Source: a virus (lineage: Duplodnaviria; Heunggongvirae; Uroviricota; Caudoviricetes). From it: 64,000 nt of DNA. Of this stretch, positions 60,506 to 63,786 are shown piece after piece. The stretch covers positions 66,432 to 130,431 of IMG/VR virus record IMGVR_UViG_3300044878_000087. One strand, 5' to 3'. The translations under genes and the position numbers were made by a program. The first letter of the stretch is position 1. Every line of letters begins with the position of its first letter. A model generated the notes under the pieces. The model was not told the origin of the DNA. It worked only from the letters and a program-made list of their open reading frames with translations, and ran no database searches.

Positions 60506-60582
60506 GTGAATGTAGTTCAGTTGGTTAGAATATCCGGATGTGACCCGGATGGTCAGGGGTTCGAGCCCCCTCATTCACACCA
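60506..60582 (+). tRNA. tRNA-His(GTG)
   Basis: Acceptor GTGAATG/CATTCAC, anticodon stem TCCGG/CCGGA with GTG, GGTTCGAG T-arm, encoded CCA; G at -1 (60505). Confidence 0.92.
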
Positions 60583-60602
60583 TTTCTTTTCTTGGAGTGT
60601 CT

Positions 60603-60761
60603 ATGAAAGTCAAGATCAAACAACGTCCATTGGATAACTTTGGTCCAGCAGATTGTCGCTGTTGCAGCAGACTCAGTTGGAAGAACTTGAAGCTTGATAA
60701 GCAAGTACTCAAAGAAGCCGTAAACGATGCGAACTACGCAATCGAACGTCAAGTAGCATAA
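60603..60761 (+). CDS. 52-aa Cys-containing peptide inside the tRNA cluster
   Basis: SD GGAG; MKVKIKQRPLDNFGPADCRCCSRLSW... Confidence 0.55.
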   Translation: MKVKIKQRPLDNFGPADCRCCSRLSWKNLKLDKQVLKEAVNDANYAIERQVA

Positions 60762-60794
60762 CGCAGCCATAGTTCAGTTGGTTAGAATGCTGCG
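60762..60794 (+). pseudogene. tRNA 5'-half remnant
   Basis: GCAGCCATAGTTCAGTTGGTTAGAAT shares its D-arm with tRNA-His; no anticodon or T-arm follows. Confidence 0.55.
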
Positions 60795-60803
60795 TGATTT
60801 ACT

Positions 60804-60887
60804 GGGTTGTTAGGGGAGTGGCCAAACCCATCGGACTGTAACTCCGCGTCTACGACTACCGTGGTTCGAATCCACGCCAACCCACCA
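60804..60887 (+). tRNA. tRNA-Tyr(GTA)
   Basis: GGGTTG/CAACCC acceptor, CT-GTA-AC loop, variable arm GTC-TAC-GAC, GGTTCGAATCC, CCA; T-C mismatches at 7:66 and 27:43. Confidence 0.88.
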
Positions 60888-60892
60888 TTTAC

Positions 60893-60975
60893 GCCCAGGC
60901 TTAGCTTAAAAGGCAAAGCGCTTGAGATCCGGTGCGATCACAAGAGACATGCTGGTTCGACTCCGAGCCCTGGGC
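60893..60975 (+). ncRNA. tRNA-like RNA with expanded anticodon arm and no encoded CCA
   Basis: Acceptor GCCCAGG/CCTGGGC, D-arm, GGTTCGACTCC T-loop, but a 16-nt anticodon-position loop. Confidence 0.65.
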
Positions 60976-60977
60976 TG

Positions 60978-61087
60978 CTCAACAGAAGGCACTTAGGTGC
61001 AGAACTAAAACGAGGCGCCGGTACGCGCCTACCTAGATGACGAACGACCTGACGCGCAGGGTAATCAGCTACTAGGGAACTGTTGAG
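60978..61087 (+). ncRNA. candidate 110-nt multibranch RNA
   Basis: Closing stem CTCAACAG/CTGTTGAG enclosing GCAC/GTGC, GGCGC/GCGCC, CCTAG/CTAGG and CCTG/CAGG stems. Confidence 0.55.
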
Positions 61088-61097
61088 GTAAAGATCA

Positions 61098-61173
61098 CAG
61101 AGTGTAGTTCAGTTGGTAGAATGCATGGTTTGGGACCATGTGGTCGGAGGTTCGAAGCCTCCCACTCTGACCA
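61098..61173 (+). tRNA. tRNA-Pro(TGG)
   Basis: CAGAGTG/CACTCTG, CATGG-TT-TGG-GA-CCATG, GGAGG-TTCGAAG-CCTCC, A73, CCA. Confidence 0.95.
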
Positions 61174-61255
61174 TTTCAAAGTGAATTGTGTACAATAGTA
61201 TACGAATACTAGTTTCAATTGGTAAGTACCCGAGTTGGTAGCTTACAAGATACAT

Positions 61256-61340
61256 TCCGGGATGCGCCGAATTGGTAAGGCACACGGCTGTTAACCGTGC
61301 GACATCGTCACTACTGGTTCGAACCCAGTTCCCGGAGCCA
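61256..61340 (+). tRNA. tRNA-Asn(GTT) with long variable arm
   Basis: TCCGGGA/TCCCGGA, CACGG-CT-GTT-AA-CCGTG, 13-nt variable region CGACATCGTCACT, G73, CCA. Confidence 0.9.
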
Positions 61341-61392: not shown

Positions 61393-61809
61393 ATGCAGAA
61401 AGAATGTAAAGTCCACGGAACGGTAACATATAGATCTTTCCGTGCAGGTAATCAAATTAAATGGCGGTGCATGAAGTGCATGTCCATGGCCATAAGTGAT
61501 AGACGAAGGAAATTAAAAGTCTTATCGATTGACTATAAAGGTGGAGCATGTAACGATTGTGGCTATAGTTCCAACCCAAGCGCACTTGAATTCCATCATG
61601 CTGATCCCAATGAAAAAGAATTTGGTATTAGTACATCGGGTGGGACAAAGTCATTCGATCGAATCAAAGTAGAATTAGACAAATGTCTATTACTCTGTGC
61701 GAACTGCCACAGAGAAGAACACGATCGTATTGAAGCCGGGCTATACGTCATTAGTCCAATGAACCAAGAACGATTTGATATGTTCTACATCAACGCAATT
61801 AATTCATAA
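61393..61809 (+). CDS. HNH endonuclease
   Basis: CKVHG..CMKC N-terminal Zn site; CNDCG..ALEFHHADP..ELDKCLLLCANCHREEH. Confidence 0.9.
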   Translation: MQKECKVHGTVTYRSFRAGNQIKWRCMKCMSMAISDRRRKLKVLSIDYKGGACNDCGYSSNPSALEFHHADPNEKEFGISTSGGTKSFDRIKVELDKCLLLCANCHREEHDRIEAGLYVISPMNQERFDMFYINAINS

Positions 61810-61822
61810 AGAGGAATATTCA

Positions 61823-62077
61823 ATGGTACCTTGTTGCGAAAGAACTGAACGGCAATACCTAGATAAAGAAGGCAATGTAAAGCCAGAATGGATCGAAGCT
61901 AACTACACGAAAGACGCAGTGGTTAGTATAGAAGAAGAACGAGACACAGACTGGGGCAAATACGTCTTTGAGAAAAGAGGATTCTATCCAGTAAATACAA
62001 TCGTAACTGTACTAGGTACGCCACTTAAGTTGTGTACTTGCGCGTGTCATAACGAAGGTTCAATGGTGATGCACTAA
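61823..62077 (+). CDS. small Cys-rich protein
   Basis: SD GAGGA; MVPCC...LCTCACH; TAATG-coupled to the peptide array. Confidence 0.6.
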   Translation: MVPCCERTERQYLDKEGNVKPEWIEANYTKDAVVSIEEERDTDWGKYVFEKRGFYPVNTIVTVLGTPLKLCTCACHNEGSMVMH

Positions 62078-62259
62078 TGATGTCACCTGATTTGATTGAG
62101 CGTATGGCTGATCGGATAGCATCAGCGATGGGCATGACACCAGATGAGTTCCAACAATATCAGAAACAACACATGACTGATTTGAATGACCGTTTGGAAA
62201 AACAGCTGGAAGCACAGAGAATGACTCCAGAGATCCTAGAGAAGAGGTGCACGCTATGA
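62077..62259 (+). CDS. array peptide 1 (60 aa)
   Basis: Ends LEAQRMTPEILEKRCTL. Confidence 0.75.
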   Translation: MMSPDLIERMADRIASAMGMTPDEFQQYQKQHMTDLNDRLEKQLEAQRMTPEILEKRCTL

Positions 62260-62426
62260 CAAAAGACAGAGAACCGACTTGCTGGAAAATCATGGGTTAC
62301 AGTTCTCATGAAGAATTCCTTCGTAAAGCAAGGGCACGTACATTTGTAATGACCCGTATCCTGAGGGCACAGATGAAAGCCCAGGAAGTTACTCCTGAAC
62401 TATTAGCTAGACGGTGTACGATATGA
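62256..62426 (+). CDS. array peptide 2 (56 aa)
   Basis: Hand-translated MTKDREPTCWKIMGYSSHEEFLRKARARTFVMTRILRAQMKAQEVTPELLARRCTI; ATGA overlap. Confidence 0.75.
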   Translation: MTKDREPTCWKIMGYSSHEEFLRKARARTFVMTRILRAQMKAQEVTPELLARRCTI

Positions 62427-62503
62427 GAAACTCAGCTTACGAAGAAGCAAAGCTTTATGGCTTTAAAGGAACCTTTGAAGATTGGTTAAGGGCATTGTTA
62501 TGA
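62423..62503 (+). CDS. 26-aa SAYE-motif peptide
   Basis: MRNSAYEEAKLYGFKGTFEDWLRALL; ATGA overlaps at both ends. Confidence 0.65.
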   Translation: MRNSAYEEAKLYGFKGTFEDWLRALL

Positions 62504-62670
62504 CAATAGAGCGACTATGTAAAGCCGCACTAGCTAAGATGGGTCCTAATAAGAAAGCCCGTCTTGCCGCTCACCACAAACGTTCCATTGAATTCAATAA
62601 GCGTGCAGCAGAAGACTTTGAAAGCCAGAAGCTTACTGACGAACTATTAGCCCGCAGGTGCACGTTATGA
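62500..62670 (+). CDS. array peptide 3 (56 aa)
   Basis: Start moved to MTIERL; ends FESQKLTDELLARRCTL. Confidence 0.75.
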   Translation: MTIERLCKAALAKMGPNKKARLAAHHKRSIEFNKRAAEDFESQKLTDELLARRCTL

Positions 62671-62834
62671 CACTGGAACAATTGATCGAAGATGCACGTA
62701 ACCGTCATGGTACCCATGAACAAAGCCTTGCGGTAGCCAGGGAACGGATGCGTCAGACTAATGAACGACTATCGCGAGAGTGGCGTGCACAAGAGGTTAC
62801 AGAAGAACTTCTGAATAAAGTAATATCATTGTAA
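62667..62834 (+). CDS. array peptide 4 (55 aa)
   Basis: Hand-translated MTLEQLIEDARNRHGTHEQSLAVARERMRQTNERLSREWRAQEVTEELLNKVISL. Confidence 0.75.
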   Translation: MTLEQLIEDARNRHGTHEQSLAVARERMRQTNERLSREWRAQEVTEELLNKVISL

Positions 62835-62913
62835 GCAGACAGATCAGCCAAAACATGTTACCCAATACTATAGTTTCTTAAAAGAAAATAATATTAATTT
62901 TTGGGTAACGACC

Positions 62914-63786
62914 ATGTTTGAAATGCTATTACCAACTAGTGCAGGGATGCAAACATTTCCAGATTCTGGGCCAGGACCACAAACACTTACCCTAGGAAAT
63001 TCAACACTCGGTTATTTTGGATCGATTCCGAGTAGTGCACTGTTCACACGTACGCAACTTCAAGACGCTATTGGATTAGCGGGTATCACAGCTGTAAATG
63101 AAAGCCCACAATGGGTTAAATGGGTAATGAACGATAAAGTCTTTTTTACCCCGCTTGGTGTTTTAGCTACTGATGTTAGTTGGCAAGAACTTTATAATGC
63201 CGGTGCTGTATATGGAGATAGTACTTTAGGTAAATACCCAAATGGTCCAGGGGTAAACCAAAGTGCTGGCGTAAGTAAAAACGGTACCATGTTTAGAGTT
63301 CGTTTATTTCAAGGCAGTCTTAGCGATCCAGTTGATCCGACCGGTGCCAACGCATTGGCTGGAGCTGAGTGGCAGCAGTATTTTGGTGCGTTTAGTCTGA
63401 CCCCACCTAGTGGGTACACTGGACCACAATTTAAATTGTTTTCCAACGCAGCCCTTGCGGGTACTTCCTATTGCTGGACAAAAAATACCTGGTCTGGTGG
63501 AGACGCTAGTTCATCGGCGGTTATTCTAGCCGCTGCCGGCGTAAACAACTCACCAAAAACATCAAAAGGTACCCAGGCATGGTTACCTATACTCGAAGTA
63601 GATACGTCTGGCACCTTACTGCTCCCTACAGTAAATATCTACTCGTTTAATAAACCAAACGTGCAACGAGGCGTATTAACTAGCCTCAGTACAACTGGCC
63701 TTTACTTAACTGCAATTAAGAGTAGCTCTATTACTGCAACCAAAGTAAAAGCGTTGACTAGCATTTCTGCCGCGGTAATACCGTAA
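62914..63786 (+). CDS. tail/baseplate-associated virion protein of a jumbo-phage paralog family
   Basis: PDSGPGPQTLTLGNSTLGYFG, WVKW...KVFF, SWQELYNAGAVYG, WLPILE segments typical of phiKZ-like tail paralogs. Confidence 0.65.
   Translation: MFEMLLPTSAGMQTFPDSGPGPQTLTLGNSTLGYFGSIPSSALFTRTQLQDAIGLAGITAVNESPQWVKWVMNDKVFFTPLGVLATDVSWQELYNAGAVYGDSTLGKYPNGPGVNQSAGVSKNGTMFRVRLFQGSLSDPVDPTGANALAGAEWQQYFGAFSLTPPSGYTGPQFKLFSNAALAGTSYCWTKNTWSGGDASSSAVILAAAGVNNSPKTSKGTQAWLPILEVDTSGTLLLPTVNIYSFNKPNVQRGVLTSLSTTGLYLTAIKSSSITATKVKALTSISAAVIP

Follow-up and report, generated by a model that had tools for sequence, protein, structure and literature searches.

A tandem array of small paralogous phage genes as candidate mimics of the small partner of a papain/C39-like protein in Pseudomonas

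The window examined here, a stretch of 64,000 nucleotides, corresponds to positions 66432-130431 of a 310,743-bp phage genome with terminal repeats, for which the closest phages by protein similarity are the Pseudomonas jumbo phages D6, RVTF4, Viktualia, Psa21 and 201phi2-1. The subject of this study is an array of five successive open reading frames (ORFs) on the + strand at 62077-62834, in which stop and start codons overlap as ATGA at every junction and which sits between a tRNA cluster (60506-61340) and virion-structural paralogues of the same strand; the array is syntenic in the five related phages named above. Counted from ATG, ORF1 to ORF5 encode 59/60, 56, 26, 56 and 55 amino acids (aa). 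An earlier note on this DNA had reported five consecutive ORFs joined by ATGA overlaps, three of them absent from the ORF track, and four shared C-terminal tails; the coordinates and overlaps were re-derived with the same outcome, the three absent ORFs had been missed because they are shorter than the 60-aa cut-off, and the letters of the tails as quoted are correct. Four of the five ORFs belong to one family, referred to here as the small partner on account of its bacterial members, which are encoded beside a large papain/C39-like protein. The genes of the array, together with the ORF that overlaps its start, are as follows.

61823..62077, + strand: Cys-rich ORF of 84 aa, overlapping ORF1 by TAATG; in the same gene string, not of the small-partner family
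62077/62080..62259, + strand: ORF1, subtype A, 59/60 aa, tail ...EKRCTL; phrog_20797 at E 1.5e-5
62256..62426, + strand: ORF2, subtype B, 56 aa, tail ...ARRCTI; phrog_20797 at E 3.5e-5
62423..62503, + strand: ORF3, 26 aa, with a SAYE..GF.GT.E.WL motif; not of the small-partner family
62500..62670, + strand: ORF4, subtype C, 56 aa, tail ...ARRCTL; phrog_20797 at E 0.0055, family hidden Markov model (HMM) at E 2e-27
62667..62834, + strand: ORF5, subtype D, last gene of the array, 55 aa, tail ...NKVISL; phrog_20797 at E 3.3e-6 over its full length

ORF1, ORF2, ORF4 and ORF5 all match PHROG 20797, a function-less entry of 54 positions whose profile is matched by 45 of 51 aligned family members. 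An exhaustive profile search with the four paralogs and their close homologues against 1.84 billion representatives returned 59 clusters at 50% identity, almost all of 55-62 aa, and in nearly all of these the profile match extends to the final residue of the protein. On the strength of these profiles the shared family of the four ORFs is not a product of chance. The members fall into orthogroups A (ORF1-like), B (ORF2), C (ORF4), D (ORF5) and E/F, with orthologues of both ORF1 and ORF4 in D6, RVTF4 and at the loci L013 and L016. The tails of bacterial members are a nearly invariant TCSL and those of phage members are RCTL, VISL, VIDL and others. The earlier note held the roughly 40 N-terminal residues to be unrelated between paralogs; they are indeed very diverged, and most paralog pairs show weak or undetectable likeness there, but ORF4 and ORF5 are clearly homologous in this part (z 5.9; hhalign 94%), and 'unrelated' is an overstatement given that the N-terminal part is well conserved inside each orthogroup.

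The AlphaFold model of the monomer (pLDDT 80) consists of three helices, at residues 3-14, 17-42 and 46-54. It has no match in the PDB or BFVD by Foldseek at E < 0.001, only generic long-helix matches with Z below 5 by VIA-align and no usable match in the ESM Atlas, and a search of the profile against PDB sequences gave nothing below E 0.09. Scans with Pfam, NCBIfam and PADLOC, with single sequences and with the 51 aligned members, returned only scattered coiled-coil noise.

Comparison of the array with its orthologues at L013 and in D6 gave pN values of 0.15-0.34 and pS values of 0.60-0.95 (near saturation), the 26-aa ORF3 included. The array ORFs are under purifying selection and, because synonymous sites are near saturation while non-synonymous change is low, they are real protein-coding genes. 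It could be supposed instead that the ORFs are chance frames, or that their 3' ends are RNA or ribosome-binding signals and not protein motifs, since the codons of RRCTL (AGG TGC ACG) create a Shine-Dalgarno-like AGGTG whose distance to the following start codon is 6-7 nt. This has practically no chance of being correct, for three reasons: first, the amino acids are kept at saturated synonymous sites; second, there are 59 diverse clusters of homologues; third, the tail is also carried by genes without a successor (ORF5; 201phi2-1 gp449) and by bacterial copies whose next gene begins at a distance of 25-62 nt. RRCTL solely as the ribosome-binding site of the next gene was likewise rejected, as this fits some junctions but neither the terminal genes nor the bacterial copies. 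The homologue clusters, the saturated synonymous sites and the bacterial copies together refute the reading as chance frames or RNA signals.

A scan of species-representative genomes identified a D-type member in the chromosome of Pseudomonas pharyngis, 58 nt upstream of an ORF of 722 aa, and an equivalent pair is present on a metagenomic contig, its large protein being 54% identical to that of P. pharyngis. The large protein, of about 700-780 aa, has at least 599 clusters of relatives, mostly from Pseudomonas and Burkholderiales and nearly all annotated 'hypothetical'. It occurs in 18 of 401 Pseudomonas species genomes (4.5%), in 14 of them at full length, and at every one of the 15 full-length loci of these 14 genomes a small gene lies 25-60 nt upstream on the same strand; four shorter relatives of the large protein (about 520-540 aa) have no small gene. 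Over all inspected full-length loci of Pseudomonas and Paraburkholderia the spacing is 25-62 nt. A family HMM in which the window paralogs and relatives from metagenomes were combined recognises these upstream genes; E values are 1e-17 to 1e-25 where the gene is of subtype A, B or D, and 1e-5 to 1e-8 where it is of E/F. When the search was reversed, a small-gene match adjoined a large gene in 11 of 12 Pseudomonas genomes, the twelfth (G133) carrying orphans. The pair is also found in P. syringae pv. actinidiae, the P. syringae group, a P. aeruginosa plasmid and Paraburkholderia; at a distant Shewanella homologue of the large protein the upstream gene, of 52 aa, is not detectably a member of the small-partner family. 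As judged from sequence, the host module is a small three-helix protein with a large papain/C39-like protein, sporadic in Pseudomonas and Burkholderiales. No homologue of the large protein was found in the 310,743-bp genome of this phage or in 50,697 phage records, and the window copies are for this reason orphans.

The subtypes of the phage genes find their counterparts among the bacterial ones. ORF5 is 62% identical to the bacterial partners at L033, L035 and L037, ORF2 is 57% identical to those at L043 and L044, and the closest bacterial partner of ORF1, at L038, shares 41% identity with it. Phage and bacterial sequences are intermingled in the tree of 59 small proteins, whose well-supported branches cannot be explained with fewer than four switches between phage and bacterium: the ORF2 clade (phage B) joins bacterial L043-L045 (support 100/97), the E/F types join six bacterial members (98/88), ORF1 joins L038 (90/76), ORF5 stands beside L033-L037, and ORF4 joins the plasmid-like member of L020. 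Every window paralog has a different bacterial subtype as its nearest. The tree of 15 cognate large proteins, in turn, is partitioned without exception according to which subtype of small gene adjoins, with 4 changes, the minimum, a value reached in 0 of 200 shuffles. These relationships bear on the adaptor model of the earlier note, in which the tail docks on one partner, to which each variable body would bring a target of its own. Such a model would account for a conserved tail joined to a variable body, but each variable body has a matching bacterial subtype that tracks a clade of one partner family, and the predicted contact of the variable helix is with a hypervariable helix of the large protein (see below), leaving little free surface on a protein of 55 aa. 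The adaptor model is accordingly very unlikely, and its claim of different targets finds no support: the bodies look instead like determinants of specificity for variants of one partner family.

The number and content of the small genes are not fixed among phages. The syntenic arrays of the related phages hold 2 to 7 members, varying freely among close relatives, and the non-jumbo phages pf16 and Cygsa01 carry single D-type copies, that of Cygsa01 between the major head and neck genes. This phage has a sixth member of E type, 64 aa long, at G000:C1:132103-132297 (L008:1459-1653), about 1.7 kb past the end of the window, with a short extension after the tail motif (..NKVCNWGTLYG); virion-structural paralogues stand between it and the array, whereas in D6, RVTF4 and L016 the E-type gene comes immediately after the D-type one. 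Members inside or beside tRNA clusters are seen in the jumbo relatives and on other metagenomic phage contigs, some without evident jumbo relation: two members lie amid 13 tRNAs at L018 (4989-6058), one is followed by 4 tRNAs at L022 (162-1072) and one lies 10 nt before a tRNA-His at L024 (957-1529), the exceptions to this placement being pf16, Cygsa01, L025 and L020. The tRNA-cluster placement could reflect a hot spot for accessory genes or a functional link. An orphan small gene is also present on a plasmid-like contig (L020) with KlcB and ParA-type genes; a tblastn search with this member (P0047) against PLSDB gave no match. The Pseudomonas genome G133 has three orphan small genes (L072:3396-3563, L073:3168-3338 and L074:3110-3283) that adjoin genes for a TrwB/TraG-type coupling protein, a Rep3 initiator and Csy2-Csy3-Csy4, with no large gene detected in that genome. 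This suggests that plasmids or integrative and conjugative elements also carry antidote-only copies.

Another possibility is that the small proteins have a phage-intrinsic or other host-directed role, as a small regulator or an assembly helper, and that the bacterial pair is a domesticated or decoy version. The position of the array between the tRNA cluster and same-strand virion-structural paralogues, the Cygsa01 copy between head and neck genes and the members within tRNA clusters of several phage contigs, some not evidently related to jumbo phages, would all suit such a role. Nevertheless, a complement of 2 to 7 members among close relatives is typical of accessory and not of core genes, the phages share near-identical subtypes with host genomes, and mobile elements other than phages carry orphans too. 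Furthermore, 201phi2-1 gp449 and gp450 have no virion mass-spectrometry note, unlike the neighbouring gp452; a search of the literature on gp449 or gp450 found no mention of either, and the text of the 201phi2-1 transcriptome paper, as distinct from its tables, does not name them. Because of the variable copy content, the orphans on plasmid-like or conjugative DNA and the lack of a virion note for gp449 and gp450, a phage-intrinsic role is less likely, and it is given a small chance.

For the large protein, an AlphaFold model (pLDDT 78.5) has a central papain-like domain, in which C195, H306 and D326/D327 are invariant in 50 homologues. Foldseek ranks staphopains, UfSP, phytochelatin synthase and a C39-like peptidase as its best matches (E 3e-5 to 1e-3), with a Josephin-type clippase also among them; the Pfam family PF13529 (Peptidase_C39_2) scores 22.1 bits, under its cut-off of 24 bits. 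The C-terminal region of about 160 residues is highly conserved and was not identified by searches of Pfam, PDB sequences or the Atlas. Against the AlphaFold DB it resembles the C-terminal modules of a Ralstonia type III effector and an eCIS-core protein (E about 1e-5 to 4e-7), which, at the level of predicted structure, is only a hint that it is an effector domain.

Three types of genomic island around the pair were inspected, each with known defence or toxin gene families: one with RES, HEPN and a UvrD-type helicase; one with an OLD/TOPRIM ATPase, a Multi_ubiq-ThiF-BubE operon, nSTAND3 and HEPN_Toprim_N; and one with a NACHT-like gene, in this case a weak match only. At the subtype-D loci (L027:1103-3439; L064:5848-8196; L069:2854-5202) the pair lies about 560 nt downstream of the Multi_ubiq - DUF6791/ThiF - DUF6527(BubE) operon and an HTH and ImmA/IrrE (M78) pair lies upstream; the ubiquitin-like operon is not seen with other subtypes. 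Neighbours of this kind, together with a patchy occurrence of 4.5%, are typical of defence or toxin-antitoxin cargo and are not proof of it. A search of the literature on a C39-type defence system found nothing relevant, and the Juk system was rejected as a match, given that JukA is YaaW/Cbp3-like (10.1101/2022.09.17.508391) and unrelated.

Co-folding was carried out for one phage paralog, ORF5, and one host protein, the large protein of P. pharyngis, with the unpaired alignments A4 and A5. The runs gave ipSAE values of 0.80, 0.80 and 0.76 where the best control gave 0.00, with at least 87% of contacts in common between runs and a partner pLDDT of at least 80. The predicted interface includes A194-C195-A196, G305-H306-A307, R328 and a face of helix 395-420 on the large protein; on ORF5 it takes in, among others, residues 1-8, helix 2 on one side and the tail at 48-55, and the output names no particular tail residue as touching C195. 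Conservation of the interface differs between its two parts, with a mean of 0.66 and several invariant residues in the protease domain and 0.27 in helix 395-465, the value for the whole protein being 0.58. The prediction thus agrees with an arrangement in which the invariant tail meets the conserved catalytic surface and the variable helices meet a surface that varies as well. This is the part of the earlier note's proposal that survives: it had imagined a constant docking tail with a variable body directed at a host protease or defence protein, and a small partner of a papain/C39-like host protein, with the tail predicted on the catalytic part and the helices on a hypervariable surface, fits that description, the counter-defence role remaining conjectural.

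A further scenario is the main alternative within the host-partner frame: the small protein may be the substrate or tag of a papain-like peptidase or transpeptidase, engaged through its tail, with the tail-altered phage copies acting as dead-end competitors. The structural matches of the large protein lend themselves to this, as they include UfSP, which binds the C-terminal tail of a modifier, the acyl-enzyme-forming phytochelatin synthase and the Josephin-type clippase, and so does the family alignment, in which the match reaches the last residue of nearly every member and the near-invariant bacterial TCSL differs from the phage tails; subtype-D pairs, moreover, adjoin a ubiquitin-like conjugation operon. 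This scenario is unlikely, given that the pair brings neither a ligase nor an activating enzyme, that the ubiquitin-like operon is absent beside the other subtypes and that the predicted interface buries the small protein in its entirety and not the tail alone, as would be more expected of a stable complex. A more speculative version, in which the host module is an immune device for peptide tagging or processing, its cysteine enzyme, similar to UfSP or phytochelatin synthase, taking the helical protein as substrate via TCSL and the array supplying a set of tail-altered decoys, one per subtype, is a rather doubtful proposition. On this version, the tRNA-cluster placement may also indicate that the translation apparatus is what the large protein attacks with its C-terminal domain and that tRNAs and mimics form one counter-defence cassette. 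The difference between phage and bacterial tails could matter under an inhibitor or a substrate model alike.

Taken together, the homology of the small proteins, their strict adjacency to the large gene in bacteria, the failure to find a large gene in phages, the match of subtypes and the co-folding prediction point to the array being, with fair probability, a panel of orphan antidote (antitoxin-like) mimics of the small partner of the host C39-like protein. In the mechanism proposed here, the bacterial small protein would hold the large protein inactive or fill its active site, its invariant C-terminal tail resting on the catalytic part, and the long variable helix would meet the hypervariable helix of the large protein and so confer specificity on each pair. 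The phage, in which no large gene was found, would express mimics of the small subunit, one per host subtype, and these would bind the host large protein during infection, replacing or joining its own partner, and prevent its activation in the manner of an orphan antitoxin. Phage orphan antitoxins have been reported in three sources (PMC11825919, PMC13309987, 10.1101/2023.12.14.571748), one case concerning a chimallivirus, a nucleus-forming jumbo phage.

Several points weigh against the proposal of orphan antidotes. The large protein has no match in PADLOC v2, in NCBIfam or, above the cut-off, in Pfam, and the only pointers to a role for it in defence are its neighbourhood and its patchy distribution. 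The mark used for co-folding, which was reached by 58 of 80 solved complexes and 2 of 110 mismatched pairs, is only roughly valid as a calibration because the alignments were self-supplied and unpaired; in addition, a pass is to be expected of a protein 62% identical to the true partner, and the predicted complex supports a likeness of binding mode and not inhibition. Similarly, linked genes are co-inherited, and the agreement of the large-protein tree with the small-gene subtypes shows a long-standing pairing and not co-evolution of the interface. The systematic difference of the phage tails from bacterial TCSL could signify a different activity of the phage copies. Lastly, the small proteins carry no recognisable DNA-binding domain, scans of Pfam and NCBIfam having found none, unlike many type II antitoxins.

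The surroundings of the array contain several further features. The 84-aa Cys-rich ORF has an L013 orthologue at the equivalent site (49% identity, dN/dS about 0.5) and is without a match in Pfam and PADLOC scans. ORF3 is kept in D6 as an ORF of 25 aa (71% identity, dN/dS about 0.15 over 24 codons) and has weak matches to phrog_22483 (E 0.002) and to a segment of the tail-fibre phrog_14726 (E 0.02); in RVTF4 and L016 its slot holds another small ORF. An HNH endonuclease gene at 61393-61809 lies between tRNA-Asn and the string of small genes. The earlier note regarded the tRNA/HNH locus as a plausible counter-defence neighbourhood, but nothing about the HNH gene points to a defence role: the gene belongs to the tRNA cluster, is absent in D6 and is different in Psa21, which is consistent with a mobile homing endonuclease that is not part of the array. 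On the other side, 62914-63786 and 63799 to the end of the window are occupied by multi-copy virion-structural paralogues (phrog_3589, phrog_1062; up to 7 matching places per phage record). The space from ORF5 to the virion-structural gene that begins at 62914 is largely occupied by a 9-bp inverted repeat at 62857-62909, GTTACCCAA ... TTGGGTAAC, with an AT-rich spacer of 35 nt; it may serve as a terminator, as a promoter region or as a hairpin with a regulatory role. A scan for sigma-70 promoters and terminators around the array gave results no better than shuffled sequence; jumbo phages of this kind use their own polymerases. A megablast search of the array region against phage records gave no match.

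If the proposed role of the array is correct, a candidate anti-phage or toxin-antitoxin-like module that is absent from the catalogues searched would be present in bacteria including P. syringae and P. aeruginosa, and the phage-encoded natural inhibitors would mark the large-protein module as one that phages are selected to evade. Counter-defence would in this case take the form of a tandem panel of specificity variants mirroring host diversification, which would constitute a ready-made matrix for studying the evolution of binding specificity in a very small protein. A likely role would also follow for the function-less PHROG 20797 and for gp449 and gp450 of the model phage 201phi2-1.

Three known systems offer a comparison. 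A staphostatin is a beta-barrel protein of about 105-110 aa whose gene lies downstream of that of the protease. The staphopain-staphostatin pair of Staphylococcus aureus (PDB 1pxv, 1y4h) resembles the host module in that the gene of a papain-fold cysteine protease lies beside that of a small dedicated protein that binds the cleft, as is predicted here, and the large protein itself has staphopains among its best matches by Foldseek; however, the partner here is a helical protein of 55 aa, encoded upstream and without sequence relation to staphostatin, and the large protein has three further domains and appears cytoplasmic, unlike staphopain. Type II toxin-antitoxin operons likewise place a small gene immediately ahead of a larger, effector-like one in the same orientation and are patchily distributed over islands and mobile elements, whereas the candidate 'toxin' here is a multi-domain protein of 700-780 aa and no DNA-binding domain is recognisable in its small neighbour. 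The phage orphan antitoxins and mimics reported against toxin-antitoxin systems, with DarG-like proteins in T4-like phages and chimalliviruses and a mimic against DarTG in a vibriophage, likewise leave only the neutralising partner in the phage, as is proposed for the array. They differ in that the bacterial pair considered here is an uncharacterised one with no relation to DarTG. The copies in the phage are predicted helical binders of 55 aa and not enzymes, and they form a tandem panel of diverged paralogues that mirrors host subtypes and is known from sequence and models. As for the family itself, the PHROG 20797 entry carries neither a function nor a link to a bacterial partner, a link that is made in the present analysis.

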